Source: an uncultured Eubacteriales bacterium
GTDB lineage: Bacteria > Acidobacteriota > Aminicenantia > Aminicenantales > Aminicenantaceae
Length of the DNA stretch: 38,076 nt
Assembly: GCA_964640835.1 (NCBI GenBank)
Contig: CAZXJE010000003.1
Span: 1-38,076 of the forward strand
Direction: 5' to 3'
Below, in pieces: positions 5,571 through 23,880 of the stretch. The translations under genes and the position numbers were made by a program. A model generated the notes under the pieces. It had not been told where the DNA came from. It saw nothing but the letters and a program-made list of their open reading frames with translations, and did not search any database. Each line of letters starts with the position of its first letter. Position 1 is the stretch's first letter.

Positions 5571-5596
5571 GCTTGGCTTAGCCAAGCTCTTTTAAA
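5571..5596 (+). terminator. Possible intrinsic terminator of the znu operon
   Basis: Hairpin GCTTGGC-TTA-GCCAAGC (5571-5587) followed by TCTTTTAAAA. It overlaps the 3' end of the convergent FTCD gene. Confidence 0.3.
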
Positions 5597-7248
5597 ACAA
5601 GATCTTTGATCTCGTTTCCAAGATTAACAGCATCTTCTTTTAAGGAATTGGCCCGATCACCTATATCTTTTTTAAATTTTTCATCCTGAATATCAGGAAG
5701 GTTTATCCTGACATTGTAAAAAGCACCCTCTGCTCCGGCCTGCGCTGTGAGACCTGCGACACCGGCATCATTGATCGAATTTTTATTTCCGCTCAGCACG
5801 ACTTCCTTGGCAAGGTTCAAAGCTTCCACACACTTTTCCAAGACTTCGAGTGGGACCAATGTTGCCTTCTTGGATGTTTCTTCGATCGCTGCAGCCCTGG
5901 CTTTCTTCTGCTCATCTGTTTTGTTCTTCATTCGCATGGCGGTCATCACGCTGTTGAAAGCTACAGTGTCCGCATCCACGTCATGTAGAAGCTGGTCTTT
6001 TAGTGCTTGACCATGGGTGGCCAAATCCTTGATTTTGATCTGTACATCTTCGTACTCTTTTTTCCCAACCGTGAGGTTGGAAACCATAGCTGATAGTGCA
6101 GCCGATAATGCACCACACAGAGCTGCCGTGCTCCCACCTCCTGGAGCAGGAGAATCCATAGAGAGTTCATTGGCGAACCCACGGAGATTCAGGTCCAGAA
6201 GCGAGTTTTCTACTTCTGTGAATTGGTATTCTATTATTTTCTTTTGCTTATCAAACAGCGCTACATCATTCAGTCCCAACGAGAGAACAGCTGTCCTGAT
6301 AAGTTCTTCCTCGGGTACTCCGGGGCTTTTTCCTTGTTTGTTAAGGTAGTATCGCCCGGCCATGAGCATGGCCTCTTTGGGGATTAAGCCTACAAGCTCA
6401 CTTCCAGTCACACGAAGACCTATTTGTTCAGCTTCCTTGATAGCCTCATCAAACACAAGATGAGGGGGAGAGATCTTGTAATTCGTGAAATTTATGGATA
6501 TTTGAGCGATCCCGTAATCTTCGACATACCATCCAACAGCCTTAACTTCATTGAATTTTCCCGGAACTTTTATGGACTTGCCGTTTTTATCTCTGATAAT
6601 CTTCCCGTCTTCATCTCTTTTGGCTCGTTCTCTCTCTCGAAGGTTGAATGCGATATGACGAGCTAGTGTGCGATCTTTTGTGTTGAGGTTGATGTTGTAT
6701 GCAATGAGAAATTCTCTAGCACCGATAGCAGTGGCTCCTGCTTTAGCGCTGAACACGGGCTCTCCATAATCCGGTGCCCACTCTGGATCCTTGAATTTAT
6801 CTTCTAGCCCCTCATACTGACCAACTCTAATGGTCGCCAAATTTTTTCGATCCGGCTTTTGGGCGGCCTCTTCATACAGATAGACTGGAATTCCCAACTC
6901 TCGTCCTACTCTTTCTCCCAACTCCCGAGCCAGTTGGATGCAATCTTCCATGGTAACTCCTGTCACGGGAACAAAGGGGCATACATCTGTTGCTCCGATC
7001 CTGCTGTGTGTTCCTGAATGTTTACTCATGTCTATAACTTCGGCTGCTTTTTTTATGGCCTTGAAAGCCGCTTCTTTAACAGCCTCGGGTATTCCGATGA
7101 ATGTCACTACGGTTCGATTCGTGGAATCCCCTGGATCCACATCGAGGAGCTTAATTTTGGGGGTTGCCTCAATCTCTTTTGTAATCGCGCTGATCTTTGT
7201 AAGGTCTCGTCCCTCGCTGAAATTAGGAACACACTCAACAAGCTTCAT
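5578..7248 (-). CDS. ftcD: Bifunctional glutamate formimidoyltransferase / formimidoyltetrahydrofolate cyclodeaminase
   Basis: N-terminal formiminotransferase domain (MKLVECVPNFSEGRD...) and C-terminal cyclodeaminase domain (PAPGGGSTAALCGALSAAL). 4-nt overlap with the upstream M16 gene. Confidence 0.85.
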   Translation of the reverse strand: MKLVECVPNFSEGRDLTKISAITKEIEATPKIKLLDVDPGDSTNRTVVTFIGIPEAVKEAAFKAIKKAAEVIDMSKHSGTHSRIGATDVCPFVPVTGVTMEDCIQLARELGERVGRELGIPVYLYEEAAQKPDRKNLATIRVGQYEGLEDKFKDPEWAPDYGEPVFSAKAGATAIGAREFLIAYNINLNTKDRTLARHIAFNLRERERAKRDEDGKIIRDKNGKSIKVPGKFNEVKAVGWYVEDYGIAQISINFTNYKISPPHLVFDEAIKEAEQIGLRVTGSELVGLIPKEAMLMAGRYYLNKQGKSPGVPEEELIRTAVLSLGLNDVALFDKQKKIIEYQFTEVENSLLDLNLRGFANELSMDSPAPGGGSTAALCGALSAALSAMVSNLTVGKKEYEDVQIKIKDLATHGQALKDQLLHDVDADTVAFNSVMTAMRMKNKTDEQKKARAAAIEETSKKATLVPLEVLEKCVEALNLAKEVVLSGNKNSINDAGVAGLTAQAGAEGAFYNVRINLPDIQDEKFKKDIGDRANSLKEDAVNLGNEIKDLVLKELG

Positions 7249-8717
7249 TCAGTCTCTCCTTTTCGGATGGTATATTGAAATTCTCCATTTGTATCATAGA
7301 CTTCCAGGTCGAATTCTTGTAAATAGGGAATCAGCTCTTGGATATTCCCCACGACGACCACAATTGGAGATTGGAACGAGGATCGACGAGCAATCTCATA
7401 GACATTTTCAGGGCTAATGAGCATCATGCTTTTATAGTATGAATTCCAATGAGACTCTTCTAATTCAAAAGCTTGAATTGCAGACAACCTGGAGGAATAA
7501 TACTCAAGGTCCTCGATCCGAAGCGGGAAATTTCCTATCAGGTACGATTTAGCCTGTTCTAGCTCATAATTCGGTACGACCTGGGTAGAAATTCTCCTGA
7601 TCTCATTCAGGCTCTCTGTGATGGATTCGAAAATTGCATTAGGCCTGACTCGTTCTTGAATGGTCAAGATACCACAGGCTTTGAAAAATTCAATGGTACT
7701 GAAAGCAAAGTAAGCATAACCTTTAGATTCCCTCAGGTTCATAAAAAGACGGCTATGGGGAGATCCCCCCAGGACTTGATTGAGAACTGTGATCGGGAAA
7801 TAGTCATCATGATTTCTCACAAGGATTGTATTCCCGATCGTGATCGTGGCATCTTCCTCTTCGGGAAGATCTACGATACAGAGTTTCAGAGTTTCATTAG
7901 GTTGTGGTGGTCTGACGACATCGCTTTCGATGTTCCTGTTTTCCCAAGTATTTAAATAGCGGCTGACTTTTCTTACCGCTGTCCTGAGAGTAAGATTGCC
8001 GATCAAGATCAATTTTGCATTGTTCGGTCTGTAATATTTCTCAAAAAAAGACAAGAGTTCATCTCGATTAAAATTTCTGGTGCCTGTTTCGTTGAAACCA
8101 ATATTTCTGTAAGGGTGTTCTTCGAATAGTATCCGGAGCAGAGTCCTCCGTCCGACAAAGGTCGGTGAGGATTTTCTTCCCAGTAGATCATAGTGCATGG
8201 TTCTGATGACATTACTAACTTCAATCCGAGGGAACGTCGGCTGGAGGATCATTTTACCAAAGGTTTCTAGCGCAGTGTCGAGATAATCTTCTAAAAAGGT
8301 AAAGGAAATGACAGAATAATCGGGGTGTGTTTCGGACGAAAATTTCCCCCCGATTGTTTCGATCGTCTCAGTGATGCGGGATGACGAAAGCCCGATGGCT
8401 CCTTTATTAACCATATTTGCAGTGAATGTGGCTAATCCTGGCAAAGTATCGGGTGAAAAACTTTCTCCTGCATAAACGATCAGATGCATGGAAATCACTT
8501 GTAGGTCTTGACGTCGGATTACGGATACTTCAAGTCCATTAGAAAGAGATGCTGATTCTATTTCGGGCAGAGTGAGTTCTGGAAGTGGATCTGGGAAAGG
8601 AGGATCTCGGCGGAATCTTTCTTGTGAAAAAAGAGATGTATTCCAAATGAACAACAATATCAGGAGAAGGAAACAAAGAGATGATGGATGACTTCGTATC
8701 CTCATAGTAATACTCAT
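7245..8717 (-). CDS. Secreted M16 (pitrilysin/insulinase) family protein, with the zinc motif absent
   Basis: Signal peptide MSITMRIRSHPSSLCFLLLILLFIWNTSLFSQ. M16 two-domain length. The position of HxxEH reads GLATFTANMVNKG (about nt 8415-8429). ATGA overlap with the upstream paralogue. Confidence 0.75.
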   Translation of the reverse strand: MSITMRIRSHPSSLCFLLLILLFIWNTSLFSQERFRRDPPFPDPLPELTLPEIESASLSNGLEVSVIRRQDLQVISMHLIVYAGESFSPDTLPGLATFTANMVNKGAIGLSSSRITETIETIGGKFSSETHPDYSVISFTFLEDYLDTALETFGKMILQPTFPRIEVSNVIRTMHYDLLGRKSSPTFVGRRTLLRILFEEHPYRNIGFNETGTRNFNRDELLSFFEKYYRPNNAKLILIGNLTLRTAVRKVSRYLNTWENRNIESDVVRPPQPNETLKLCIVDLPEEEDATITIGNTILVRNHDDYFPITVLNQVLGGSPHSRLFMNLRESKGYAYFAFSTIEFFKACGILTIQERVRPNAIFESITESLNEIRRISTQVVPNYELEQAKSYLIGNFPLRIEDLEYYSSRLSAIQAFELEESHWNSYYKSMMLISPENVYEIARRSSFQSPIVVVVGNIQELIPYLQEFDLEVYDTNGEFQYTIRKGETE

Positions 8718-10120
8718 TTTATTTTAATGTTCAGAACGACTCTCTTTTTAGTGAAATGTCTATTTGCGATCCCGATTATATCTGTAGGGGTTACGGCTAG
8801 ATATTTTTTCAACTCCTCCAGGAAGTTAGTATTTTTTTTTTGTGAGAGATGAAATTCAGCCAAGAGAATTCCTCTATCCGCCAGAGTAGTGAATTGATCC
8901 AGATAATCTCTTTTGAACATATTTTTAGCTTTATTGAGTTCATCTTCCGAAATGAAACCAGACTTTAGCTTATCGACCTCATCAAATATGGATTTTTGGC
9001 TTCGGTCTCGTAATGTTTCAGTGTTGTTCTTGACAAATATTTTAAACGTCGCAAGGTTTTTTTTCATCTCTATTCCTCCGCTTAAATGAGAGGCGATACG
9101 GTCTTCGTAGATCATTCGTTTTTGGAGTCGAGAGCTTTTTCCATGGAGCAAGATGTACTCGATAATGGCAAGAGTGTAGCTGTCGGGTGAATCAGGTGAA
9201 GATATCCTGTATCCGAGGTGAAATCCAGGAGAAGGAGCCAGATAGTCTTCTACATTCCGAATCATCTCTTCGGATATAAAATGTTCTTCTTCCGGGAAGA
9301 AAGGGACAGGCTGCCCAGGACGAATCGTAGAGAAGTATTTTCTCACGAGTTGTATGGCTTTTCTCTTCTCGAAATTCCCTGTAATACAGAGAACGGCATT
9401 GTTCGGTATATAATATTTTGTATAAAAGTCTTGGACATCTTCTGTGGTTATTTTCCGCAGGTCGGTTTCACTGCCCAAAACGGGATGACTGTATGCAATA
9501 TTCGGATAGAGCAGTTGATCGAGAAGAACAGAACTTTCAAAATAAGGATCGTCCAGTTTTCTTTGCTTGAGCTCTTCGATTAAAGAATCCCTGGTCCTTT
9601 TCACTTTGGATGGATGAATATCCAGTGAGATCATCCGGTCAGATTCAAGCCACAAAATAAGCGCAAGTTGGCTGGCAGGGACGGTCTGGAAAAAGATCGT
9701 TTTGTCTTCAGTAGTAGTGGCATTTAAAACTCCACCAATTTTCGAAATGAAGTGAATGTGTTGCATGGACCTTATGTTTCTTGATCCTTGAAACATCAAA
9801 TTTTCGAGCATGTATGCCAGCCCTGTTCTTTTTGGTGGCTCATTAATCGAACCTACATTATATGCCAGTACAACAGAAACGAGCGGCAGGGAATAATCCT
9901 CGGCGAGTATAACTTGAAGACCATTTTCCAATTGTAAAGTTGTTACTTCAAAAGGAAATATCTCATCCTCTTGTACAGGGAAAAGGTTCCCGGCCAAAAA
10001 AATCAGAAAACTCATAAAGAATATTAACGATTTACTTGGCAATAGGCTCATTATCCGTTCTTTACAAAACAAGGGAATTCTAGAGGTTATTATCATAGAA
10101 TAGAATTTAAAAAACTGCAA
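8714..10120 (-). CDS. Secreted M16 family protein, with both zinc-ligand His residues replaced
   Basis: M16 N-terminal motif region reads GLAYMLENLMFQGS (about nt 9800-9814), where the canonical sequence is GxAHxLEHMxFKG. The ORF opens with TTG at 10120. The likely ATG is at 10051 (MSLLPSKSLIFFMSFLIFLAG, a signal peptide). Confidence 0.75.
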   Translation of the reverse strand: MQFFKFYSMIITSRIPLFCKERIMSLLPSKSLIFFMSFLIFLAGNLFPVQEDEIFPFEVTTLQLENGLQVILAEDYSLPLVSVVLAYNVGSINEPPKRTGLAYMLENLMFQGSRNIRSMQHIHFISKIGGVLNATTTEDKTIFFQTVPASQLALILWLESDRMISLDIHPSKVKRTRDSLIEELKQRKLDDPYFESSVLLDQLLYPNIAYSHPVLGSETDLRKITTEDVQDFYTKYYIPNNAVLCITGNFEKRKAIQLVRKYFSTIRPGQPVPFFPEEEHFISEEMIRNVEDYLAPSPGFHLGYRISSPDSPDSYTLAIIEYILLHGKSSRLQKRMIYEDRIASHLSGGIEMKKNLATFKIFVKNNTETLRDRSQKSIFDEVDKLKSGFISEDELNKAKNMFKRDYLDQFTTLADRGILLAEFHLSQKKNTNFLEELKKYLAVTPTDIIGIANRHFTKKRVVLNIKIK

Positions 10121-10125
10121 ACGTA

Positions 10126-11802
10126 TTAGCTGGTGCGCTTGACGATGACAAGAGTCATGTCATCCATCTGTTCGGTTCCAGATGTGTAAGAGTTGACCTC
10201 ATCAAATATTTTTTCAATAAGTTTTTGAGATGAAAGTTTATTGTTCTTTTTCAGGAGTTTACCCAGCCGATCTTCGTTAAATTCCTCATTGGCCTTGTTC
10301 CTGCATTCCGTGAATCCATCCGTGAAGAACAGAGCCATGTCTCCTTTTTCAAGACTTATTGTTCGAACTTCGTAATCGGCAATTGGGAACATACCTAAAC
10401 AGAATCCGCATGTATCCAGACGTATGATATCGCCCTTTTTGTTCAGAAGAATGGGCGGAGTATGGCCTGCGTTGAGATATGAGAATTCTCCAGTATTTTT
10501 GTTAAGTTCTCCATAGAAGAATGTGATAAACACATTGGACGCTGTACTGGAGTGAACGAGAATGTTAAGTTTGGCTGCCATTTCTATAATGTCATATGAA
10601 GGACTGACTTGGGTATGGAGAGAAGCCCGGAGTTGTGCCATGATAAGTGCTGAAGAGACGCCTTTTCCAGAAACATCAGCGATCGTTACGCCTATTCTCT
10701 CATCATCGATGTCGATAAAGTCGTAATAATCCCCGCCAACTTGATAACATGGGATGTTCGCACCGCTGATTTCGAACTGTTTACATTCCGGATTTTCCTT
10801 GGGCAGAAAATCTCGTTGAACTTGAGCAGCCAGTTCAAGTTGCTTTTCCATCTGATCCCTTTCCTTTTCCTGTTCGATGTGCTTGGAGTTTTCGATCTTA
10901 ACGGCAGCAAGGTTTGACAATAATGTGAGCAACTCCAAATCCTCGTCAGAGAACTGCTTCATGAGGGATATTCTGTCGGTATAGATAATTCCGATAATTT
11001 CTTTATTATCATAGAGAGGAACACACATGGCAGATTTAATATTCATTTTAAGGATACTGTCCTGAGCTTTAAAGCGGGAATCCTCTTGAACATCTGAGAT
11101 GAGAAGGGATGAATGTTTATTTATGGCCATATTGATGATGCTTTTACTCACTTGTATTTTCTGATTTTTCAAGCGTTCATTGTTGATTCGGATGACCTTA
11201 GGAATGAGTTGTGAAGGATTGCCCAGTTTAAGCATCAATATCCCTCTGTCCATCGGGAGATTTCCTGAAATGAGGTCCATGATATGTTCAAGAAGCTCGT
11301 TGAGGGGTTTGTGGAGAAGTAAAGCTTTATTGACTTCGTTGATCACCGCGAGAGATCGATGTTCGAGCTTGATCTGCTCGATATCGATGGGTCTGGCTGC
11401 AGCGCGGATGGTTGTGCTGATGTCATGCTTCTTTAGAACATCATCGAGATGCATGATGGTGTTGACGTTTACAGAGGGGGATGGGGCATCGGTGACTTCA
11501 ACATTGGATGAGATCTCTTTATCATATATTACACGAGTTGTCCCGACCAGAATTTCGTCTGCTTTTTTTAGCTCGACTTCAGCTGCAATTCGTTTGCCGT
11601 TCACAAATGTTCCATTTTTGCTATTATTGTTTCTTATCGCATAACCTTGATCAACGGGATAGAAGAATGCATGGCGGCCTGAACAAAAAGGATCTGGGAG
11701 AGGGATTTCATTGTCGGATGACCTTCCAATTGAGACTTTGTCCTGTGGTAAAGGAAACTGGAAGGCATCGCCCTCTTTGGGATAAATGTATAATTTTGGC
11801 AT
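10126..11802 (-). CDS. FHA-GAF-PP2C (SpoIIE/RsbU-type) serine phosphatase
   Basis: FHA motifs (IGRSSDNEIPL...SGRHA...NGTFVNG), a central GAF-like region, and a C-terminal PP2C/SpoIIE domain (GGDYYDF, ADVSGKG, FTDGFTE, DDMTLV). ATG at 11802 with AAGGGG upstream. The ORF extends to a TTG at 11811. Confidence 0.8.
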   Translation of the reverse strand: MPKLYIYPKEGDAFQFPLPQDKVSIGRSSDNEIPLPDPFCSGRHAFFYPVDQGYAIRNNNSKNGTFVNGKRIAAEVELKKADEILVGTTRVIYDKEISSNVEVTDAPSPSVNVNTIMHLDDVLKKHDISTTIRAAARPIDIEQIKLEHRSLAVINEVNKALLLHKPLNELLEHIMDLISGNLPMDRGILMLKLGNPSQLIPKVIRINNERLKNQKIQVSKSIINMAINKHSSLLISDVQEDSRFKAQDSILKMNIKSAMCVPLYDNKEIIGIIYTDRISLMKQFSDEDLELLTLLSNLAAVKIENSKHIEQEKERDQMEKQLELAAQVQRDFLPKENPECKQFEISGANIPCYQVGGDYYDFIDIDDERIGVTIADVSGKGVSSALIMAQLRASLHTQVSPSYDIIEMAAKLNILVHSSTASNVFITFFYGELNKNTGEFSYLNAGHTPPILLNKKGDIIRLDTCGFCLGMFPIADYEVRTISLEKGDMALFFTDGFTECRNKANEEFNEDRLGKLLKKNNKLSSQKLIEKIFDEVNSYTSGTEQMDDMTLVIVKRTS

Positions 11803-11845
11803 TGAGTTCAACCCCTTAAATTATAACCCTTGGAGGGGAAAAATA

Positions 11846-14338
11846 TCAAGAGAATTTGATCTTTTCTAGAGGCTTTATCATTTTTTTACACTTTCTTACT
11901 CTATCCTCGAACGAGATATCATCGATCAAGGGAAAAAGGACTTCTTTGACCTCCTTGTGTAAAATGTTGTCCAGAAGCTCGATGGAATAGTCAATCGATT
12001 TTTTAGTACCCGTACAGATATTCTGGTAGGCTTTGATGATATCATTTGGGGAGTAAATCAAGCTGAGAAGTTCAAATATGTGCTTCAACGATAGAGCGAG
12101 ATTCTTTTCCATATCGCTGACCAGATGTTCTTTCCTTCGGTCTGCCATCAGATCATGCATTTCTAGGAGAACAAAATAACATTTCTTGATGATCTGGATC
12201 GTTTTTCCCAATACGGGTTTTTGAGAAAACTGGATTTGGGGATGTTTTGTCCTCATTTTGTAAAGAGCTTCAATCATCTCTGTTTCGACCTCATTCTCTG
12301 TCTTTTTGAGCTCAGAAGCCAACAAATCCGCAGCCCTCTGTGTACCTACCTGTTTTAAAATATCAGGAATGGCTCTTCTTGTTTGCAAGTTGACATCTGG
12401 ATCCGAAAGATAGTCTTTGAGGATTCCTGTGATTTTATTTCCATATGCGACCAAGGCCTTGCTGGAAATAATCTCTACTCTTGGTGTGGATAGATGGTTG
12501 ATAAGGTGGGGTACGAACTCCCGCCTTTTTAGCCTGCCTGCGCTCTCGATCGCATACCTAAGAACATCGGGCGATTTGTCTTTGAGCAGTTTGTTGAGCT
12601 CGCTTGTGACGGGTGAGCTCGACTCTATCATCCCAAGGACTTTGGCCGCCTCCATCCTGGAAACTTCGCCTTTTTCGCCTTTCTCATCCACAATTTTGTC
12701 AAGCTGCTCTTTCAAGACTTGATGATAGATATCTTGAGACATGATCTCCTTGATTTGTGTGTTGATGTCCTCTTGGTCCAGGGCGTCATCTTCCTTCGGG
12801 AGGAGTAATTCTCCATCCAATTCCAAGAGTGAGTCCATTGCACATGCTTGGACCTGATCGGATTTGTGAGCTATTATGCTGCGCAACTCCGGACTCATTT
12901 TCTCTCTTTTGATAAGATCAAAAAGGTTCATCGCATACAAAACAGAGCTCCGGTCTTTGCTTTGGAGGGTGTCAAAGACAAGCTTTGTCATGTCGATGTC
13001 GACGGTCTCTGAGATGAACTTATCCGCATCTTGCCATTTGATCTTTAGGTTTTTTTTGACACTACCAACATACTCACGGGTGATCCAACGGTTAAGAAAA
13101 ATCCAGAGAAGGGAAAAGCCGATAACGATAAGACTTATATGCTCGAGCGAAAAATCAAGTATGAATATACAGACGATAAGGATGGTTGCCGCTATACCTT
13201 TAGCAAACTTGTTTACAAACATATCGATAAATACTTTAGCCTTGTATTTGATATCAGGTGAGATCGGGATGTACAACAATTCTCGAACCGACTGGTTGAG
13301 GGAATGTGCCAAGCTTTTATCTCCGCCTTTTATTGCTATGGCCCAATAGAGGAGGAATGCGGCTGGGATGAATAATATAGTAATCGAGGCTATCAAGAGG
13401 AACAAGGGGGCGATTGACAGCGCCAAACGCATCCCGAAATTTTTCAAGATCCGGCTTGTGAGAAAAATATGCACGAGGTAGGAGAATACGAGGAGCCCTG
13501 TGAAAAACGTGCCCAAAAACGCAGTCCTTTCGTCTTGGTCAACTAATACCACTTCAACTACAGAATTGAACTGAAAATCAATCAGTGTCGTTATGACAAT
13601 GGCTGTAGTCATGATGGCGCTCAAGATCAGCAGATACCGGTTTTTTTTGATGATACCAAAGCTTTCAAGATAACCGGTCTTGGGCGTCTTCGTTGAAGTA
13701 TTCCCTCTTTTTTTATCATCCAGAGGTTCTATTGTTTGTTTGTGAAGGATGGACACAAAAAGAATGCAGGGGAGGAGCAAAAAGGGGCAGATCAGGAGCA
13801 AATCCGTGGTTCCAAGAACCTGAGCAAGGAATCGGGCGGCCAATGATCCTGCTATGCCGCCTAAAAGTCCTCCACTCACAAGAAATCCGATCAGCCGCTT
13901 TGCCTGTCTGGGATGGTAGATATCATTGACCAAAATCCAGAATTGGGTTACTGTCGTTATAGTAAAAATGTCACACCACACCCAATAGATCATGGACAGC
14001 CAGCTCCATTCCATCTGGAAGAGAAACCAGAAAAGGACGAGGCTAAAAATAAAGAAAATCAAGCTTAGAGATATATACACATTCCTTTTCATTGCGTAGA
14101 TAAATTTTGTGTTGAGAGAAACAACAAAACCAATAAGTATAGCGGTAATAAGATAGGCAAAAGGAAGGAGCTCGGCGTTCAGCGATTCCAAAAAGTTTGA
14201 AATTTTAACGGGTTTTACGATGTATGCAGAGCATGTGATCAAGAAAAAATAGGAAAACATGAGAAGAGCAGTGGGCATCTCTCCATGTTTAATATCAACG
14301 AAGGGGGAGAGAGCTTTATGGATCGTAGTCTTTGTCAT
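11846..14338 (-). CDS. TLC (ATP/ADP translocase, Npt/AAA family)-like transporter fused to C-terminal HEAT repeats, paralogue 1
   Basis: Polytopic N-terminal domain of about 430 aa with the TLC-type motif FWILVNDIYHPRQAKRLIGFLVSGGLLGG. The C-terminal domain of about 380 aa is a soluble helical repeat domain (HEAT/PBS-lyase-like). 830 aa. Confidence 0.7.
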   Translation of the reverse strand: MTKTTIHKALSPFVDIKHGEMPTALLMFSYFFLITCSAYIVKPVKISNFLESLNAELLPFAYLITAILIGFVVSLNTKFIYAMKRNVYISLSLIFFIFSLVLFWFLFQMEWSWLSMIYWVWCDIFTITTVTQFWILVNDIYHPRQAKRLIGFLVSGGLLGGIAGSLAARFLAQVLGTTDLLLICPFLLLPCILFVSILHKQTIEPLDDKKRGNTSTKTPKTGYLESFGIIKKNRYLLILSAIMTTAIVITTLIDFQFNSVVEVVLVDQDERTAFLGTFFTGLLVFSYLVHIFLTSRILKNFGMRLALSIAPLFLLIASITILFIPAAFLLYWAIAIKGGDKSLAHSLNQSVRELLYIPISPDIKYKAKVFIDMFVNKFAKGIAATILIVCIFILDFSLEHISLIVIGFSLLWIFLNRWITREYVGSVKKNLKIKWQDADKFISETVDIDMTKLVFDTLQSKDRSSVLYAMNLFDLIKREKMSPELRSIIAHKSDQVQACAMDSLLELDGELLLPKEDDALDQEDINTQIKEIMSQDIYHQVLKEQLDKIVDEKGEKGEVSRMEAAKVLGMIESSSPVTSELNKLLKDKSPDVLRYAIESAGRLKRREFVPHLINHLSTPRVEIISSKALVAYGNKITGILKDYLSDPDVNLQTRRAIPDILKQVGTQRAADLLASELKKTENEVETEMIEALYKMRTKHPQIQFSQKPVLGKTIQIIKKCYFVLLEMHDLMADRRKEHLVSDMEKNLALSLKHIFELLSLIYSPNDIIKAYQNICTGTKKSIDYSIELLDNILHKEVKEVLFPLIDDISFEDRVRKCKKMIKPLEKIKFS

Positions 14339-14347
14339 ATTCGGCCT

Positions 14348-16840
14348 TTAAAAAAATGGAAAATTCTTCAGAAGGACGCGGCATCTCTTCACTCTTTCCA
14401 TGATGGACAAATCCTCAATGATGGGGAATATGGCATCCTTGATTTCTTTTTGCAAAAGGTTATCGAGAAGCTCGACGGCATAGGCTACCGAATCTTTAGT
14501 GCCGGTTCGAATGTTCTGGTAGGATTTCATGATGTCTTCGTGGGAATAGATCAACCCCAAAAGCTTGAAGATATTGGATAATCGAGTGATTATGTGATTC
14601 GGTATCTTAAATCTTGCGCTGACGTCTTGGCTTTCCTTAGAGTGGCGTTCATAGGCTTCGATCAGGTCTTTATAGTACTCTTTTACTTGTTCGGAGATCT
14701 TGTTCTTGACAGTTCTCTCTTGGAAATAGATATTCGCTCTTGCCGAACGGATGCGGTCCATGGCATCGATGAGCTCACTTTCCATGTTCTCTCTTCGCTC
14801 CTCTAGTTCCAATAAGAGAAAATCAGCCGCTTCTTGATTGCCGATTCGTGCCAGAGATGTAACCACTTCCTTTCTCAGCTCTATATCGATTTCCAAATCC
14901 CCAAGGTAATCTGCAAGAGTTCCGGTGATCTTGGGACCATATTTTTCCAGAGCGCTTCTCGCATCCACCCGAGTCATGGGATTTTCTAATTTTTCGATGA
15001 GCGCGGGCACATACTCTCTCTTTTGCAGCTTCGCCGCACTGGCCATGGCATATCGACTTACTTCTACAGAATCATCATTGAGCAGCTCTTCAAGTTTATC
15101 ACTCATGGGAGACCGAGAATCCGAGAATCCCAAGGCTTTGGCTACTTCCATCCTTGCCGTTTCTGACTCGTTATCTTTATTGACGAGAACCTCTTCTATA
15201 TACTCGCTCATGATCTCATTATAGACATCCAGTGACATGATCTCTTCAATCTCTTTTAGTAGAATTCCTTCATTGACTTGATCTTCAAAATCAGGTGCAA
15301 TTCCCGACTCGGAACCCTCAAACAACATCCCCACAGAAGATAATCTGACCTCATCCTGCTTGTAGCCGATCAGTTTTTTAACTTCGGGTGTGAGCTTATC
15401 TTGCTTGATCAGGTCGAATATATCCATGGCATACAAAATGGAACTCCGATTCTTGTCCTCGATAGTGTCGAGAACAAGCTTCATGAAGTCCACGTCCAGC
15501 TTTTCATCCACGATCCTGTCTGCACGCTTACTCTTTTTTAATTTTCCTTTGATGATATTGGCATACTCCTTGCTCACTCTTAGATTGAGCCCTACCCACA
15601 GGAGGATAAACACTATCGACATAATGCTAACAATCCGAATTCTTAAGATCTGAGCTGTCGGAACCCAAACGAAGATCATGAGTAATAGAGCACCGATGCC
15701 CTTTCCCACCCTGTTGAGAAACATATCGATGAAGATCTTTGCCTTATATTTAACTTCTGGAGATATAGGGATATAAAGCAGCTCTCTCACGGACTGATTC
15801 AGGGAAAAAGAAAGGCTCTTATCACTTCCTTTGATGCTTAATGCGAATAGGATGGTCGGGAAGGCTGCAATTCCGAACGAAAAGAGAAGAAGTATCAAAG
15901 GATAAACAAGGAGAGTTAAGCGGATGCCTAAGCGTTTGATGATATTGCTAGTCATAAGCAGTTGTACGAAGAATGGAACAATGAGCAATGCAGAGTTGAA
16001 ATATCCAAAAAAGGAGATGTAAAACGTCTGTGTAACTTCCCTCTCAATAACGGTATTATACTGAAAATCGACGAAAGTCGACACGATCCATGTGATGGTG
16101 ACGAGGGCGGCAAGGAGTTTCAAATAGTAAGTTTTTCTGACTGTTTTGAAACAGTCTAAAAAACCGACTTTCTCGATCTTTCCAGATTTTTGTACATCAT
16201 CTGTTTCCACCCGAGTAGGGGGGGGACTAGTTTTTTGTCTCCACCTGAATATTGAAGCTGCGACACCTATGTTGAGGATAAGTATTCCACCGGCAATATA
16301 AAGGAGGTAATCGGGAATGTAAGTAGCCAAAACACCGGCTAAAAGCCCTCCCACTATCCCTCCGAGGATGCCACCGCTCACCAAAAAGCCGATTAACCTT
16401 TTTGCTTCTCTGGGATTAAAGACGTCGTTGACTAATATCCAGAACTGAGTCATAAGCACCATAATGAAGACGTTGGCCCATACAAAAAAAACAAGAGGAA
16501 CCCATCCTAGATCTTTTATAAAAAGAATCCCAAAAACAAAACTTGAGAGAATGAAAAAAACAAGACTGGCAATAATGAGAAGAGATCTTGGGATCCGGGC
16601 TTGAATTTTAGAATGAAAGGCGACAACAAAGCCCATAAAAATGGCTGTGATTAGATAGGCAACAGGTAACCATGCAGCTTGATATTCGATAATGTACTTG
16701 GCGTTTCTGACTGATTTGATAATAGTGTAAGGAGCAGATATTAGAAAAAAATTGAAGAACAACAAAAGCGAGATGGTTTCTTCACCTCGCTTAATCTCTA
16801 CAATCCGGGATAGAAGTCGAAACAGGCGATTTTTGGTCAT
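14348..16840 (-). CDS. TLC-like transporter fused to C-terminal HEAT repeats, paralogue 2
   Basis: Same architecture and exactly the same length (830 aa) as the downstream paralogue. Motif FWILVNDVFNPREAKRLIGFLVSGGILGG. A 9-nt gap separates it from paralogue 1. Confidence 0.7.
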   Translation of the reverse strand: MTKNRLFRLLSRIVEIKRGEETISLLLFFNFFLISAPYTIIKSVRNAKYIIEYQAAWLPVAYLITAIFMGFVVAFHSKIQARIPRSLLIIASLVFFILSSFVFGILFIKDLGWVPLVFFVWANVFIMVLMTQFWILVNDVFNPREAKRLIGFLVSGGILGGIVGGLLAGVLATYIPDYLLYIAGGILILNIGVAASIFRWRQKTSPPPTRVETDDVQKSGKIEKVGFLDCFKTVRKTYYLKLLAALVTITWIVSTFVDFQYNTVIEREVTQTFYISFFGYFNSALLIVPFFVQLLMTSNIIKRLGIRLTLLVYPLILLLFSFGIAAFPTILFALSIKGSDKSLSFSLNQSVRELLYIPISPEVKYKAKIFIDMFLNRVGKGIGALLLMIFVWVPTAQILRIRIVSIMSIVFILLWVGLNLRVSKEYANIIKGKLKKSKRADRIVDEKLDVDFMKLVLDTIEDKNRSSILYAMDIFDLIKQDKLTPEVKKLIGYKQDEVRLSSVGMLFEGSESGIAPDFEDQVNEGILLKEIEEIMSLDVYNEIMSEYIEEVLVNKDNESETARMEVAKALGFSDSRSPMSDKLEELLNDDSVEVSRYAMASAAKLQKREYVPALIEKLENPMTRVDARSALEKYGPKITGTLADYLGDLEIDIELRKEVVTSLARIGNQEAADFLLLELEERRENMESELIDAMDRIRSARANIYFQERTVKNKISEQVKEYYKDLIEAYERHSKESQDVSARFKIPNHIITRLSNIFKLLGLIYSHEDIMKSYQNIRTGTKDSVAYAVELLDNLLQKEIKDAIFPIIEDLSIMERVKRCRVLLKNFPFF

Positions 16841-16873
16841 AAAATGACTCAGTTTTCGATAAAATACAGAGGA

Positions 16874-17221
16874 TTACTGCTCTAGAAAGGCCGCCAATGC
16901 GATTTCTTCATTATCATGAATGTCGAGAACTTTTGTAAGCATGGTGACTTGGAAAACAAGGTAGAGCTTCTGAGAAATTTTAGCAATTTTTAATTGTCCG
17001 CCCAGATTGTGAGTGGAAATATAGCTGGCTAATATTTCTCCCACTCCAAAGCTATCGATGAATTCCACCTTGTCAAAATTTAGGAGAATCTTCTTGTTTC
17101 CAGAATCCAGTTGATCTTTTACAAGTTGGTGCAGAGTGACATCGGAAATGTCTGATCTTCTGATTTCGCCTTCAATATCGAATACGATAATATCGCTTTG
17201 TTTTCTTGAATTTATCTTCAT
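16874..17221 (-). CDS. STAS-domain anti-sigma-factor antagonist (SpoIIAA/RsbV-like)
   Basis: 115 aa with a typical STAS layout and the phospho-acceptor context FIDSFGVGEIL (DSxG). First gene of the long minus-strand operon. Confidence 0.85.
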   Translation of the reverse strand: MKINSRKQSDIIVFDIEGEIRRSDISDVTLHQLVKDQLDSGNKKILLNFDKVEFIDSFGVGEILASYISTHNLGGQLKIAKISQKLYLVFQVTMLTKVLDIHDNEEIALAAFLEQ

Positions 17222-17375
17222 TTTTATCCCTTGTCCTTTAAGACCTCAGCGAATCCTGATACCCTTTCCTGCGGATAGTCTGTCTATGCGGTTTTTTTAC
17301 GCGATAGACTTGCTATAACAGATTCTACTTAAGCTTTTACCAGAACGCTATTTCAAAGTCAATCTCTTGCTATGA

Positions 17376-17566
17376 TGAATTATTCATAAAATTTGCTGCC
17401 AAATTTATATTCTAAAAACATTCAATATTTTATTGGCGGCATCTTTTACCCTGCAGGCGAGCCGATCTCACAACAAAGCTTTCGTTGTAGCCCATTTGAG
17501 GTAGTTTACTACATCTTCATGGGCCACTGCCTGGCCTTTGTAGCGATATCAGCTCGTGAATAATTC
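17376..17566 (-). repeat. Copy B (complete) of the structured intergenic element
   Basis: The revcomp aligns base-for-base with copy C over about 125 nt. It is bounded by TGAATTATTCA (17376-17386) and TGAATAATTC (17557-17566). The variable hairpin is GCCGCCAA/TTGGCAGC (plus-strand coordinates 17395-17440), flanked by A- and T-runs. Confidence 0.85.
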
Positions 17567-17575
17567 TTTATCGTC

Positions 17576-17586
17576 TGAATTATTCA
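17576..17586. repeat. Solo copy of the 11-bp palindrome TGAATTATTCA
   Basis: Exact motif, 8-9 nt beyond the end motif of copy B. A similar tandem arrangement, with an 8-nt spacer, is seen at 37938-37967. Confidence 0.6.
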
Positions 17587-17596
17587 TAAATCTCAT

Positions 17597-17625
17597 TTGT
17601 CAATTTGACGATAGAGGAATATAAT
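17597..17625 (+). promoter_or_regulatory. Sigma70-like promoter for the phosphatase/kinase-like cluster
   Basis: TTGTCA (17597-17602), a 17-nt spacer, then a perfect TATAAT (17620-17625). Confidence 0.5.
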
Positions 17626-17700
17626 AAAATTGGAGGAATTGAGAGATGCGATGGATGATCAGTGGGGGAGCGACTCCAACCGATGAAACAAGGGAGTTCA

Positions 17701-18807
17701 ATGAAAGCCAGTGAAATCCAGAATAGAATGAAGCCAATTCGGCATATTCTCTTCATTGCCCTTATCACAGTTCTGTGTTTTACATTTTCTTTGGCTGAGG
17801 AACTGCCATGCGAATGGACTGGAGTCAAAAAAATCGTAGCGATCGGGGACCTGCACGGAGACTACAAGAACTTTGTGGAAATACTGAAAGGAGTTAAACT
17901 TGTCGATGACTCTCTCCATTGGAAAGGTGGAGAAATTCACTTCGTTCAGACAGGGGACATCTTAGACAGAGGACCGGATGGAAAAAAAATACTCGATCTG
18001 ATCCTGCTCCTGGAAAAAGAGGCCGAAGAAGCTGGAGGAATGGTCCACATGTTGATCGGAAACCATGAGGAGATGAATATTACGGGTATTGCCATCGACA
18101 ATCCGAGATATGTAACAGTAGAGCAATTTATATCTTTTCTTCCCGATGATTTTAGAGAAAACAAAGAGGAAGATTTTAAAAAAAAATATGACAAAAATAA
18201 TAACAAATCTTCAAACTCCGCTCTTTCTTATGAAACAGAGTTAAGAAATTACTGGGCCGATGTTTTGAAAAAGGACAGAAAAGCGAAAGCAGAGTACACA
18301 AGATATTTTAACGATAACTACGGAAAGTGGATCATAAAACACAACGCCGTAATAAAGATCAATGAAACGGTCTTTGTTCATGGTGGAATCAGCAATAGCT
18401 ACTCTAAGAAGAGCTTAAAGGATATCAACAACCAATTGCGAAGGGAGTTGGAGGAATTCCGGCTGGCACTAAAGAGGGGAAGAGCTTTGAGGTCTCAGCC
18501 GAAAATTGTGTACGATCAGAATGGCCCTCTGTGGTACAGAGGTTTGGCTATAAAGGAGGATGTGAATTTTGCGGAAGAAGTAAAAAAAATCCTGAATAAT
18601 CTCGGGGCTAAAAATATGGTGATCGCTCATACTCCCCAGAGAGGGAGCAGTAGTGTAGTCTCTGAAGAATTCGTTAGCCGCTATGATGAGAGTATCTGGA
18701 TCATCGATACAGGCATTTCCGAAGTGTATGGAGGTTTTTTAAGTGCATTGATCATAGAAGAAGGGGACATCTGGCTATGGCCAGAGGGGGAAATTAATGA
18801 AAATTAA
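17701..18807 (+). CDS. Secreted PPP-family (calcineurin-like/Shelph-like) metallophosphatase
   Basis: PPP signatures GDLHGD, GDILDRG and GNHE. Signal peptide ...MKPIRHILFIALITVLCFTFSLA-EE. ATG at 17701 is preceded by AGGGAG. The ORF extends up to a GTG at 17662, so the start is uncertain. Confidence 0.8.
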   Translation: MKASEIQNRMKPIRHILFIALITVLCFTFSLAEELPCEWTGVKKIVAIGDLHGDYKNFVEILKGVKLVDDSLHWKGGEIHFVQTGDILDRGPDGKKILDLILLLEKEAEEAGGMVHMLIGNHEEMNITGIAIDNPRYVTVEQFISFLPDDFRENKEEDFKKKYDKNNNKSSNSALSYETELRNYWADVLKKDRKAKAEYTRYFNDNYGKWIIKHNAVIKINETVFVHGGISNSYSKKSLKDINNQLRRELEEFRLALKRGRALRSQPKIVYDQNGPLWYRGLAIKEDVNFAEEVKKILNNLGAKNMVIAHTPQRGSSSVVSEEFVSRYDESIWIIDTGISEVYGGFLSALIIEEGDIWLWPEGEINEN

Positions 18808-19588
18808 ACTAATTCTGGCAGTTGGATTTTTGATGATCTTGAACACAACATTCATCTGTGGAAAGGAGTTTCATCCCGTTCAGGAAAATGCAGACATGAA
18901 CAAATTGGAAAAATATCTAAAAACAGCTGAAATTTATGAAGTCGAGATCGATAAATATGAAGGGAGAACGGCTCCATGGGGAGTAGTATTGAATGATGGA
19001 GAGATAAGCAGACAAGCGATATTCAAGTATGCCAATCGGCCCCGACCTACTCTTCTTCCAGATAGCTATCATTACGAAATTGCTGCTTATGAGATAAGCA
19101 AACTTTTAGAATACCTCGTGGTCCCACCTGTCGTGGAAAGAGAGGTTAAGGAAACACTGGGATCTCTTCACATATATCTCGAGGGATGTTTTTCGCTGAT
19201 TCATCGACAAAGAATAGGCACAAAATCCAATGACTCCCAAAAATTTTCTGATGCTCTATGCGAGATCTCTGTTTTTGAGAACTTGGTTTTTTGTGAAAGA
19301 GATCCCGAAGATATTTACATCCAAGAGAGCGATTGGAAGATCTGGCGTGTTGATTTTTCTGAGGCATTTGCGCCTTTCGCGGAGCTAATTTCTGAGGCTG
19401 CTATCACAAGATGTTCGAAGGAGCTTTTCCATAATCTGCAGAGATTGGAAGCGAGCGAGATAAAAAAAGTGCTCGAGCCCCATCTTAACGACGAGGAGAT
19501 AGATGCCCTCCTCAAAAGAAAAGATCTGATCATCGATAAAATCAAGCTTTTGATCGAGGAAAAGGGCGAAGACGCCGTCCTATTCTAG
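18797..19588 (+). CDS. Secreted type-II-PI4K-like kinase-fold paralogue 1 (catalytic loop degenerate)
   Basis: Signal peptide. Shares YLKTAEI, YHYEIAAYEISKLL...VPPV.ERE, GSLH and the C-terminal LNDEEIDALLKRKDLI...EEKGEDAVLF with the paralogues at 21256 and 22142. CERDPEDI replaces NEDRxxxN. The start overlaps the phosphatase gene by 11 nt. Confidence 0.65.
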   Translation: MKIKLILAVGFLMILNTTFICGKEFHPVQENADMNKLEKYLKTAEIYEVEIDKYEGRTAPWGVVLNDGEISRQAIFKYANRPRPTLLPDSYHYEIAAYEISKLLEYLVVPPVVEREVKETLGSLHIYLEGCFSLIHRQRIGTKSNDSQKFSDALCEISVFENLVFCERDPEDIYIQESDWKIWRVDFSEAFAPFAELISEAAITRCSKELFHNLQRLEASEIKKVLEPHLNDEEIDALLKRKDLIIDKIKLLIEEKGEDAVLF

Positions 19589-19781
19589 TCCATTTTCTTA
19601 TCTAAGTGCCCAGAAAATGTGCATTCGATTATAATCCCAATTAAATCAATTTGTTAACAAAATCCCATTCGATTTTTCAACAAACTTTTGCACAGAAAGC
19701 GTGGAAAAGTAAATTAATTTCCGATTGACATTTGCAATCAATTATGAAAAATTCAAGGACGCTTCATGGAGGGAAAATAAA

Positions 19782-21176
19782 ATGGGATCTTCTGAGAATA
19801 GTCTAAGAAGTGATAAACACGGTATCTTCAATAAGTTTCTAAGCCTCTTTGCCACTGTCTATCCAGGAGAATTACCAACTGCTTTACTCCTCACTCTGAA
19901 CATCTTCTTGATCTTTGCTGCTTATTACATAATAAAGCCCATAAGAGAGGCACTGATTCTCGCTGGAAAAGGGCCTGAAATCAAAAGCTATCTCTCTGCC
20001 GTAATTGCAATTGTGCTAATTTTTGTTGTGAAAGCATTCAGTAGAGTTTCCTCTCGTTTTCCAAGACAGAAATTGATCACGTGGGTGACTCTTTTCTTTG
20101 TTTCTAACTTGGTCATATTTTATGCCCTATCATTTACAGATATCAGTCTTGGAACATTTGGCATAATTTTTTTCATTTGGATAGGCGTTTTTAATGTCCT
20201 GGTTCCTGCGCAGTTCTGGGGTTTTGCCAATGACATCTACAATCCCGAAGAAGGAAAACGACTCTTTCCAATTGTCGCTTTCGGTGCTACATTCGGAGGT
20301 TTCTTTGGAAGTGTTGGTGCGGGTGGGCTTGTCGAACCAATCGGATTATATCGAATGATGCTAGTTTCTGGCGCAATTCTATTGATTTGTATCATTTTGG
20401 CTTGGATTATTCATACCAGAGAAAAAAAGAGGGCCAAACTTAAAATATCAACGAACGGTCAAGCTGACTCCCAGCAAGAAGATGCGGAGAAACCACTGAA
20501 AAAAGGTGGAGGTTTTAAGCTTGTATTTAAAAAGAGATATCTTCTCTATATTGCTTTCTTTGTTTTATTGCTGAATTTCATAAATACGAACGGGGAGTTT
20601 ATTCTAGGGCAATATGTCAAAAAGAGTGCTCATGAAGTTGTTGAGATGGGACAATCAGAAGGATTAAACACGGAAGAATACATAGGCAAATTTTATGCGG
20701 ATTTTTATAAATATCAAAATCTTTTTGCTATTCTGATCCAACTTTTCCTTGTCTCCCGAATATTCAAGTGGATTGGAGTCAGAGGTGCAATTTTTGTTTT
20801 ACCCTTCATTGCACTTGGCGGATATGCTTTCATTGCCATCGGCGCATCCTTGCTTGTTGTGAAGTGGGTAAAAGCCACTGAAAATGGGACGGATTACTCC
20901 TTAATGAACACTACAAGACATGCTCTATTCCTCATTACATCGAGAGAAGAGAAGTATAAAGCCAAAGCTGCGATCGACACTTTTTTTCACAGATCAGGGG
21001 ATGTTCTGTCAGCCTTAGTCGTCTTTATCGGGTCCACATACCTCACTTTGAGCTCAACCGGATTTGCAGGTATTAATGTTATTTTATGCTTGATTTGGAT
21101 TTTTCTCGGAGTTTTAATAGCGAAAGAGTATAAAAGGCTTTCAGGAGAAGCAACTCCTGCAAAGGAAGCACAATAA
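19782..21176 (+). CDS. TLC (ATP/ADP translocase family)-like nucleotide transporter, short form without HEAT domain
   Basis: Polytopic protein with the motif FWGFANDIYNPEEGKRLFPIVAFGATFGG, close to rickettsial/chlamydial Tlc/Npt. ATG at 19782 is preceded by GGAGGG. The ORF extends to a TTG at 19725. Confidence 0.75.
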   Translation: MGSSENSLRSDKHGIFNKFLSLFATVYPGELPTALLLTLNIFLIFAAYYIIKPIREALILAGKGPEIKSYLSAVIAIVLIFVVKAFSRVSSRFPRQKLITWVTLFFVSNLVIFYALSFTDISLGTFGIIFFIWIGVFNVLVPAQFWGFANDIYNPEEGKRLFPIVAFGATFGGFFGSVGAGGLVEPIGLYRMMLVSGAILLICIILAWIIHTREKKRAKLKISTNGQADSQQEDAEKPLKKGGGFKLVFKKRYLLYIAFFVLLLNFINTNGEFILGQYVKKSAHEVVEMGQSEGLNTEEYIGKFYADFYKYQNLFAILIQLFLVSRIFKWIGVRGAIFVLPFIALGGYAFIAIGASLLVVKWVKATENGTDYSLMNTTRHALFLITSREEKYKAKAAIDTFFHRSGDVLSALVVFIGSTYLTLSSTGFAGINVILCLIWIFLGVLIAKEYKRLSGEATPAKEAQ

Positions 21177-21255
21177 AGATTTTGATTTTCAGAACTTGAA
21201 TGGTTATCATAGAAATGTAAACCAGTGGGGATGATTAACTTTAAGGGATAATCCA

Positions 21256-22077: not shown

Positions 22078-22141
22078 AAATTAATTTTCTATATGGCTAT
22101 AAAGTGTGATTATCAATATAAACATGGAAGGAGGGACAAAA

Positions 22142-23601: not shown

Positions 23602-23631
23602 TGTACATTCTCCATAATTGTATTGTAATCC

Positions 23632-23880
23632 TGAATTATTCACGAGCTGATATCGCTGCAAAGGCAAGGCAGTGGCCCATGAAGATGTAGTGAACTACCT
23701 CGAATGAGCTACAACGAAGGCTTTGTTGTGAGATCAGTTCGCCCGTAGGGTAAAAAATGTCGATTATTGTAATAAGAGCCATGAAAATGGAAACGTTAAA
23801 TTGATTTCGTGTATGGACCAAATGAGTTGTCAAAATTGTTTTATTTGTAGTAAGAATCGACATTTTTTATGAATAATTCA
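23632..23880 (+). repeat. Copy C (complete) of the structured intergenic element, lying between sat and cysC
   Basis: Bounded by TGAATTATTCA (23632-23642) and TGAATAATTCA (23870-23880); the latter overlaps the sat stop codon. The conserved core is about 23643-23756. A long-range stem ATGTCGATT (23757-23765) / AATCGACAT (23855-23863) is flanked by AAAAA and TTTTTT. Confidence 0.85.

Follow-up and report, generated by a model that had tools for sequence, protein, structure and literature searches.

Nucleotide transporters of the NTT-HEAT clade, in which an N-terminal TLC/NTT membrane domain precedes a C-terminal HEAT_2/PBS-HEAT tail, have been described as a monophyletic, widespread and uncharacterized group in free-living bacteria, often with a domain binding cyclic nucleotide monophosphates (cNMP) either fused to the transporter or encoded after it (Major, Embley & Williams 2017, Genome Biol Evol, PMC5381601), and one NTT-HEAT gene is present in Chlamydia trachomatis (PMC5381601). 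Here we analyze a stretch of 38,076 nucleotides (nt) from an uncultured sediment bacterium assigned to Candidatus Aminicenantes (Aminicenantia, a class of the Acidobacteriota; contig CAZXJE010000003.1 of assembly GCA_964640835.1; the whole stretch is hereafter termed the window), in which two genes of this architecture lie between those coding for a STAS protein and an FHA-GAF-PP2C phosphatase, that is, for two components of the regulatory modules known as partner switches. The transporters of the Aminicenantia clade differ from those described previously in that they are shorter (~830 amino acids, aa), occur mostly as tandem pairs, lack a fused or adjacent cNMP-binding domain and are flanked by STAS and FHA-GAF-PP2C genes, a context that was not reported for NTT-HEAT proteins (PMC5381601). 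Whereas the transporters belong to a known clade and the switch parts to known families, their pairing is new as far as the literature searched is concerned, which yielded no prior description of STAS genes beside NTT genes, of NTT-HEAT follow-ups or of bacterial Fam20-like periplasmic kinases.

The SpoIIAA-SpoIIAB-SpoIIE and RsbV-RsbW-RsbU modules of Bacillus consist of a STAS protein with a DSxG phosphoserine, a small GHKL kinase and a PP2C phosphatase, and counterparts of all three, with the kinase a probable one, are encoded in the window. Here, however, no sigma factor is present, the kinase gene lies outside the operon, the phosphatase carries FHA and GAF domains and the operon partners are transporters. 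The non-sigma outputs found so far for partner switches are type III secretion, FlgM, diguanylate cyclases and the polysaccharide of biofilms. In these systems, represented by SypE/SypA of Vibrio fischeri, HsbR/HsbA and SiaABCD of Pseudomonas aeruginosa and BtrUVW of Bordetella, the phosphorylation state of a single-domain STAS protein (SypA, HsbA, SiaC or BtrV) acts post-translationally on a non-sigma target, as is proposed here (reviewed in part in PMC8256260). A solute transporter as the output of a partner switch was not found in the literature searched. The first-pass annotation also drew a parallel to Chlamydia, in which Npt transporters are combined with a sigB-less Rsb module; for the NTT-HEAT gene of C. 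trachomatis, no linkage to the Rsb genes is reported.

A STAS fold on the cytoplasmic face of a transporter, modulating its activity or stability, is likewise provided by the C-terminal domain of SLC26/SulP proteins, to which a first-pass annotation of this DNA had compared the locus. The comparison stands as an analogy only: the STAS domain of SulP is fused, whereas here it is a separate protein of 115 aa and the transporters are of the NTT/MFS type. Similarly, MlaB is a constitutive STAS-fold subunit of the MlaFEDB ABC transporter. Neither the SulP nor the MlaB domain is driven by a kinase/phosphatase cycle, and their transporters belong to the SLC26 and ABC families, in contrast to the MFS-type NTT proteins considered here. 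Finally, in Rv1747, an ABC transporter of Mycobacterium tuberculosis, regulation proceeds via FHA domains and a disordered linker that is phosphorylated. Its FHA domain is the one most similar to that of the phosphatase in the window, and the NTT-HEAT proteins too possess a conserved disordered linker containing Ser and Thr residues; in Rv1747, however, the FHA domains are part of the transporter and not of a separate PP2C protein, and phosphorylation of the NTT-HEAT linker is a conjecture.

A conserved four-gene cassette in the Aminicenantia

The table of open reading frames (ORFs) bears out the gene order and the coordinates given in the first-pass annotation and places all of these genes on the minus strand. 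The STAS gene (16874-17221) is followed by those of two paralogous NTT-HEAT transporters of 830 aa, here termed A (14348-16840) and B (11846-14338), and by the FHA-GAF-PP2C gene, the ORF of which can be extended to a TTG start at 11811 (10126-11811, 561 aa), although the ATG at 11802, its codon 4, is the likely start of the gene. The gaps between the four genes are 33, 9 and 43 nt, and the collinear array runs on past the phosphatase, as had also been pointed out, into two M16 peptidase genes (8714-10120 and 7245-8717; Pfam) and the FTCD gene, coding for formiminotransferase-cyclodeaminase (5578-7248; Pfam), all on the minus strand, with gaps of 5, -4 and -4 nt. The M16 pair and FTCD are found 3' of the cassette in only part of the related loci and hence fall outside its conserved core. 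In some lineages, the M16 peptidase genes stand directly after the transporter, where the PP2C gene is missing.

Upstream of STAS, the minus strand carries a sigma-70-type promoter (17334-17362) made up of TTGACT (17362-17357), a spacer of 17 nt and TGG-TAAAAG (17339-17334). When seven intergenic regions were aligned, drawn from loci with proteins 58-89% identical, the element TTGACT-17-TGGTAAAAG proved invariant at ~140 nt from STAS on its upstream side. The four genes are the conserved core of the cassette and are read from this conserved promoter 5' of STAS. The divergent intergenic region (17222-17661) spans 440 nt, and the STAS leader, of ~105 nt, is partly conserved among close relatives; since an Rfam scan of the whole window returned no matches, this long leader is left without a riboswitch explanation.

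The synteny of the cassette, the survey of which had been proposed as a check in the first-pass annotation, was assessed in five contigs with precomputed annotation and 78 genome loci, comprising 80 distinct loci (numbered L001 and onwards) with 39-89% identity, which were counted by script. A STAS gene lies directly upstream of the transporters in 63 of 69 assessable loci, and four of the six misses are contig-edge artifacts, which brings the count to 63 of 65. The remaining two, L067 and L069, are genuine exceptions and represent additional NTT-HEAT paralogs in metagenome-assembled genomes (MAGs) that also have the full cassette (L078 and L072). The FHA-GAF-PP2C gene follows directly downstream in 64 of 70 assessable loci, or 64 of 68 after removal of two artifacts. 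Here the real exceptions (L063, L066, L068 and L070) constitute one lineage, in which an RsbW-like kinase gene and the sat and cysC genes, described below, enter the array in the order kinase-sat-cysC-STAS-NTT-HEAT-M16-M16, with the kinase-sat-cysC-STAS-NTT-HEAT segment on one strand in L063, L068 and L070. The NTT-HEAT genes form a tandem pair in 49 and occur as a single copy in 15 of the 64 fully assessable loci, and the median gaps along the cassette are 32, -1 and 50 nt. The flanks vary among the loci with the cassette, to the extent that L001 has nothing else in common with the window. The order is conserved across the class Aminicenantia, and chance falls far short of explaining the STAS-NTT-HEAT-PP2C arrangement.

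All 80 loci with the arrangement belong to the Aminicenantia or to close Acidobacteriota. The genome profile scan kept the best 80 matches, all of them from Aminicenantia with the narrower alignment, and for this reason distant clades were sampled through a metagenome scan with an alignment of the 920-aa class. Many cassette-bearing MAGs are titled 'uncultured Eubacteriales bacterium' or 'Clostridiales bacterium', which looks like mislabeled taxonomy.

Components of the putative partner switch

The STAS protein is a single-domain protein of the SpoIIAA/RsbV type (Pfam STAS, 8e-10; TIGR00377 above cutoff). The serine of its EFIDSFGVGE motif aligns with the phosphoserine of SpoIIAA (best PDB match 1th8, E 4e-10), and this phosphorylatable residue, Ser57 in IDSFGVGEILAS, is invariant together with the motif in 64 of 64 distinct orthologs; it is the serine singled out in the first-pass annotation. 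STAS is also the most conserved protein of the cassette, with a median identity of 75.7% versus 52-60% for the others. The FHA (2e-17) and GAF (1.5e-15) inputs ascribed earlier to the phosphatase are likewise recovered by Pfam, together with a SpoIIE/PP2C domain (7e-50) that spans positions 1-191 of a 192-position profile. The protein is of the SpoIIE/RsbU type, its PDB relatives are Rv1364c, RssB and SpoIIE, and its FHA part is closest to the FHA domain of Rv1747. In the complete Aminicenantes genome CP070825.1 (L001, 15054-16382), the product of the FHA-GAF gene is just 390-442 aa long and has no PP2C domain, which may reflect truncation or decay of the phosphatase or else a frameshift introduced by sequencing.

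The first-pass annotation pictured the two proteins as a bracket around the transporters. The STAS and PP2C genes do flank them, but the annotation missed an RsbW/SpoIIAB-type GHKL serine kinase of 134 aa encoded on the minus strand at 25080-25484 (Pfam HATPase_c_2, 7.5e-27), as well as a third TLC gene (19725-21176) and the divergent operon in which it lies (17662-22975). With the RsbW-like kinase in the window, the switch would be a complete three-part one and not a bracket of two. The best PDB match of the kinase is RsbW (6m36) and its N-box, DxG and GxG motifs are seen; its matches to the NCBIfam RsbW models fall below cutoff. The gene is the first in an operon with those of ATP sulfurylase (sat, 23878-25059) and adenosine 5'-phosphosulfate (APS) kinase (cysC, 22978-23667). 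The metK and ahcY genes adjoin at 25617-28050, and several adenine-nucleotide-consuming enzymes thus cluster around the transporters. An RsbW-like kinase gene was found in 25 of the 46 loci having at least 7 kb upstream, and it keeps its linkage to STAS in every rearranged variant, the PP2C-less loci included. Judging from this linkage, the product of 25080-25484 is probably the STAS kinase.

Analysis of N-terminal hydropathy reveals no hydrophobic N-termini in STAS, the RsbW-like kinase or the PP2C phosphatase, which places all three in the cytoplasm, on the same side as the C-terminal tail of an MFS protein with 12 transmembrane helices. Sigma-factor domains were not detected with Pfam or NCBIfam in any plausible gene of the window, in agreement with the first-pass annotation, nor in the annotated flanks within 10 kb of the cassette in L001-L005, the five annotated loci. 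A sigma or anti-sigma pair just outside the window had been envisaged in that annotation as a conventional explanation for the switch genes.

The NTT-HEAT transporters

Transporters A and B are 40% identical over their full length and match the Pfam families TLC (PF03219; 55.2 and 47.2 bits, 7e-15 and 2e-12, versus a gathering score of 21), MFS_1 and HEAT_2 (1.7e-9 and 2e-11), consistent with their initial description as two TLC-HEAT paralogs. In a profile search of the PDB, the only transporters matched were NTT1 of Chlamydia pneumoniae (5e-25) and AtNTT1 of Arabidopsis (2e-18). The NTT signature motifs FW..N..EAKR and S.RE..YIP...E.K.K.K..ID are kept in the alignment to NTT1, the residues R45, E145, D258 and K380 presumably correspond to K155, E245, E385 and K527 of AtNTT1, and residues 550-708 of the tail match PBS-HEAT alphaRep proteins. 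The AlphaFold2 (AF2) model of transporter A, with a predicted local distance difference test score (pLDDT) of 74.8, presents 12 long helices (~20-447) and a confident HEAT solenoid (~550-830), and the membrane and HEAT domains are connected by a conserved linker (~445-525), with low confidence in the model from ~432 to 525. Its five best Foldseek matches are the cryo-electron microscopy structures of NTT1 (9j3l, 9j3m, 9j3n, 9j3j and 9j3o; E 2e-8 to 4e-7, target-normalized TM-score, TMt, 0.62-0.74), and generic MFS proteins rank below them (2e-5 or worse). Taken together, the NTT1-only profile matches and the NTT1 top fold matches rule out a generic MFS identity of the membrane domain, which had been named at the outset as an alternative to a TLC assignment.

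With the NCBIfam model for nucleoside triphosphate/diphosphate exchangers (TIGR00769), the scores of 48.8 and 32.4 bits fall far short of the cutoff (387.2), and A and B are hence distant NTT-HEAT clade members and not canonical ATP/ADP translocases. Homologs in Aminicenantes MAGs have been annotated as 'AAA family ATP:ADP antiporter', 'Npt1/Npt2 family nucleotide transporter' or 'MFS transporter', and an exhaustive search of representatives, with Pfam checks, identifies full-length homology at 25-32% identity to the ~920-aa (NTT-HEAT) and ~1050-aa (NTT-HEAT-cNBD) classes. On sequence grounds, A and B belong to the NTT-HEAT clade of the TLC/NTT family (PF03219; TCDB 2.A.12), and their predicted activity is nucleotide exchange. 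The linker (~445-510 of A, and the same region of B) is among the most conserved parts of the transporter family although its pLDDT is below 50, and its K-L-[TS]-P-E motif is specific to the 830-aa clade (12 of 14 members, versus 0 of 13 distant ones). Conservation coupled with low pLDDT is typical of a binding segment, and the linker is a candidate docking or phosphorylation site.

A divergent operon of putatively exported phosphatase and kinase-fold proteins

The plus strand, divergent from the STAS operon, codes for a putatively exported, Shewanella-like phosphatase of the PPP family (17662-18807; Pfam Metallophos), a putatively exported Fam20-like kinase-fold protein of 263 aa with no Pfam family (18797-19588, here termed kinase-like protein 1), a third TLC/NTT-type transporter of 483 aa without HEAT repeats (19725-21176; Pfam TLC, 2e-13, and MFS_1) and two Fam20-like kinase-fold paralogs (21256-22077 and 22106-22975), both with weak TIGR03843 and Fam20C matches and with DRxxxN and IDHS motifs. 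Export was judged from N-terminal hydropathy only, which points to signal-like hydrophobic N-termini in the phosphatase, in all three kinase-like proteins and in both M16 peptidases, and in 89% of the members of the phosphatase family. The phosphatase matches a Shewanella protein-tyrosine-phosphatase in the PDB (1v73/2z72) at 7e-35. The gene of kinase-like protein 1 overlaps that of the phosphatase by 11 nt, the two being presumably coupled in translation, and phosphatase and kinase-like protein are fused in one ORF in L048, L050 and L146. The third TLC transporter is kept in the same position in many loci, and among 57 loci retaining the STAS-NTT-HEAT-PP2C cassette, 12 are devoid of phosphatase and kinase-like genes.

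Homologs of the 263-aa family are all annotated as 'hypothetical', and its profile matches FAM20A/B/C at 3e-6 to 7e-5. The AF2 model of kinase-like protein 1 (pLDDT 91) has Fam20C/Fam20A as its best Foldseek matches (6e-8, query-normalized TM-score, TMq, 0.67), followed by PI4KII, and the catalytic-type residues K77, D172 and D186 are conserved. The two downstream paralogs align with it at 29% identity. By their modeled fold, catalytic-type residues and signal-like N-termini these proteins can be termed Fam20-like, and kinase activity is predicted. The kinase-like proteins resemble the Fam20 secretory-pathway kinases in their fold and have signal-like N-termini, and the phosphatase is closest to Shewanella PPI (7e-35). 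The kinase-like proteins differ from Fam20 in that they are bacterial, minimal (~265 aa) and without a Pfam family, and in that their genes accompany those of NTT-type transporters and are in some cases joined to the phosphatase gene.

NTT-HEAT genes in distant lineages

The metagenome scan with the 920-aa class returned 80 loci. When their neighbors were searched with hidden Markov models built from the Aminicenantia, STAS genes were found near distant NTT-HEAT genes in only two of these 80 loci, both Aminicenantia-like. An unbiased Pfam scan was also carried out on 104 distinct immediate neighbors from 65 distant loci, and it identified cNMP_binding (18), Metallophos (17), histidine kinases (6) and Omp85-like proteins (6), with STAS and SpoIIE not among the families matched by at least two of the 104. 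The pairing of switch and transporter put forward in the first-pass annotation consequently stands within the Aminicenantia, but it does not extend to NTT-HEAT genes in general, the neighbors of which code for cNMP-binding proteins or metallophosphoesterases elsewhere.

Another arrangement recurs in distant loci, with kinase-like, phosphatase and NTT-HEAT genes in this order on one strand, gaps of ~30 nt and no STAS, PP2C or RsbW genes (L108, L111, L114, L115, L118-L123, L127, L131, L133, L151 and L164-L166). The clearest cases come from the Terriglobia, another class of the Acidobacteriota, and the phosphatase gene adjoins NTT-HEAT in other metagenomic loci too; the linkage of phosphatase, kinase-like and NTT-HEAT genes spans classes. 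The phosphatases of Terriglobia-type loci have signal-like or lipoprotein-like N-termini, and in the 7-Mb genome of Ca. Acidiferrum no switch genes were found within 10 kb of this gene group. The lack of switch genes in the Terriglobia loci implies that the partnership of NTT-HEAT with an exported phosphatase and a kinase-like protein is wider and older, and the layer formed by STAS, PP2C and kinase is an Aminicenantia-specific addition.

A further group of distant loci (L087, L091, L092, L097, L132, L135, L140, L150, L156 and others) is characterized by recurrent Omp85-like outer-membrane proteins and histidine kinases, a probable lipoprotein of ~573 aa with no Pfam family, and a small cNMP-binding protein directly after the transporter. 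These neighbors are suggestive of an envelope-spanning system.

Proposed regulation of the transporters and alternative explanations

From gene order, co-transcription and topology we infer, tentatively and with confidence somewhat short of even, that an Aminicenantia-specific, sigma-independent partner switch gates the NTT-HEAT transporters, a reading that entails STAS phosphorylation, STAS binding to the tail and gating of transport. The RsbW-like kinase encoded nearby would phosphorylate Ser57 of STAS, and the FHA-GAF-PP2C phosphatase would take this phosphate off in response to a small ligand, sensed via GAF, and to a phosphothreonine mark, sensed via FHA. Given that no sigma factor is present, it seems plausible to propose that the phosphorylation of STAS would be read by the linker/HEAT tail of the transporters, either directly or through release of the kinase from the tail, and that this readout would turn nucleotide exchange on or off. 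The switch would in this way fill the role that a fused or adjacent cyclic-nucleotide-binding domain may have in the NTT-HEAT proteins of other lineages. The activity of RsbW-type kinases depends on the ATP/ADP ratio, and hence the switch could couple transporter activity to the energy state of the cell.

Several observations are in favor of such gating. The linkage of STAS and PP2C to the transporters is tight down to 39% identity and within unrelated flanks (e.g. L001), the promoter and the linker are conserved, and STAS is the most constrained protein of the cassette. In distant clades, the transporter has a cNMP-binding neighbor or a fused cNBD in the equivalent position, and Rv1747, the closest relative of the FHA domain, is itself a transporter regulated via FHA and a phosphorylated linker. 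Other observations weigh against it. Gene context is what points to a contact of the tail with STAS or with the kinase, and no STAS-transporter fusion was found among more than 1000 homologs, judged by their lengths. The linkage is confined to one class, so that inherited gene order could explain part of its conservation. The kinase gene is located outside the operon, 5' of those for ATP sulfurylase and APS kinase, and it is missing in 21 of the 46 loci for which 7 kb upstream are available; the lineage of L063, L066, L068 and L070 has no PP2C gene beside the cassette, and L067 and L069 represent an extra NTT-HEAT paralog without STAS in two MAGs. Lastly, the reading presumes a cytoplasmic source of phosphothreonine for the FHA domain and a nucleotide substrate for the transporters, the score of which with the NCBIfam exchanger model is 48.8 versus 387 bits.

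The same components may be read as a switch with a distal output, in which the target of STAS, the RsbW-like kinase and PP2C is a sigma factor or some other regulator with its gene elsewhere and the transporters are simply co-transcribed, they or their substrate perhaps serving as an input, for example via GAF or FHA. All three canonical parts, a probable STAS kinase included, are present, with SpoIIAA, RsbW and SpoIIE/Rv1364c as their closest structures, the kinase gene shows no linkage to the cassette in 21 of 46 loci and Rsb-like modules are often encoded far from their targets in bacteria (PMC8256260). Nonetheless, none of the annotated loci has a sigma or anti-sigma partner within 10 kb, and regulators acting on remote targets do not usually adhere so closely to one neighbor as STAS does to the transporter gene (median gap 32 nt, 63 of 65 loci, differing flanks); we thus regard a distal output as unlikely. 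The target of the switch might also be sought closer by, though not in the HEAT tails, either in a wider envelope system that takes in the third TLC transporter along with the exported phosphatase and the Fam20-like kinases, or in Sat and APS kinase, with the RsbW-like kinase binding and inhibiting, for instance, an enzyme in the metabolism of adenine nucleotides or of 3'-phosphoadenosine 5'-phosphosulfate. Such a target would fit the position of the kinase gene, which in most loci neighbors the kinase-like genes or converges on them, shares an operon with sat-cysC both in the window and in ~10 loci, and opens the same-strand order kinase-sat-cysC-STAS-NTT-HEAT in L063, L068 and L070. It is distinctly unlikely, however, in view of the absence of sat-cysC from most loci that keep the cassette, the loss of the phosphatase and kinase-like genes in 12 of 57 cassette loci and the presence in the Terriglobia of phosphatase, kinase-like and NTT-HEAT genes without switch genes.

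The gene order could, in addition, merely have been inherited through the kinship of the sampled genomes, with no functional coupling between switch and transporters, a notion that is in line with the confinement of all 80 loci to the Aminicenantia or close Acidobacteriota and with the absence of STAS and PP2C from distant NTT-HEAT loci. Inheritance of this kind is very improbable, since the core order and its short gaps persist at 39-50% identity among reshuffled flanks (L001, L012, L058 and L063), the promoter is conserved and STAS shows the strongest constraint.

Beyond the gating of the NTT-HEAT transporters by the partner switch, the neighborhood as a whole may be envisaged as an extracytoplasmic phosphorylation system with its own ATP supply and with the switch as an energy-dependent gate, an extension that we hold to be speculative and of low probability. 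The NTT exchangers, that is, the two NTT-HEAT proteins and the third transporter, would export cytoplasmic ATP in exchange for periplasmic ADP; the exported ATP would fuel the three Fam20-like kinases, and the exported PPP phosphatase would reverse the modification. As an open ATP/ADP exchanger would drain the cell, a cytoplasmic gate would be needed, which cNMP-binding domains would provide elsewhere and which, in the Aminicenantia, would consist of an energy-sensing partner switch docking on the HEAT/linker tail. In the Golgi lumen, Fam20C depends on ATP import and, if correct, this reading would make the Aminicenantia system a bacterial counterpart of that compartment.

Implications for the NTT-HEAT family

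NTT-HEAT proteins have a wide distribution that takes in free-living bacteria, cyanobacteria, Chlamydiae and oomycetes, and have been flagged as uncharacterized since 2017. The cassette described here gives a testable handle on the role of their HEAT tail, as a proposed docking site for a regulator. If the proposed gating is true, a solute transporter would join the short list of non-sigma outputs of partner switches. In a similar vein, the co-conservation of exported kinase-fold proteins and a PPP phosphatase suggests an envelope function for the transporters and, should these supply ATP outside the cytoplasm, the finding would bear on a long-standing question, that of how periplasmic or extracellular phosphorylation could be powered in bacteria.

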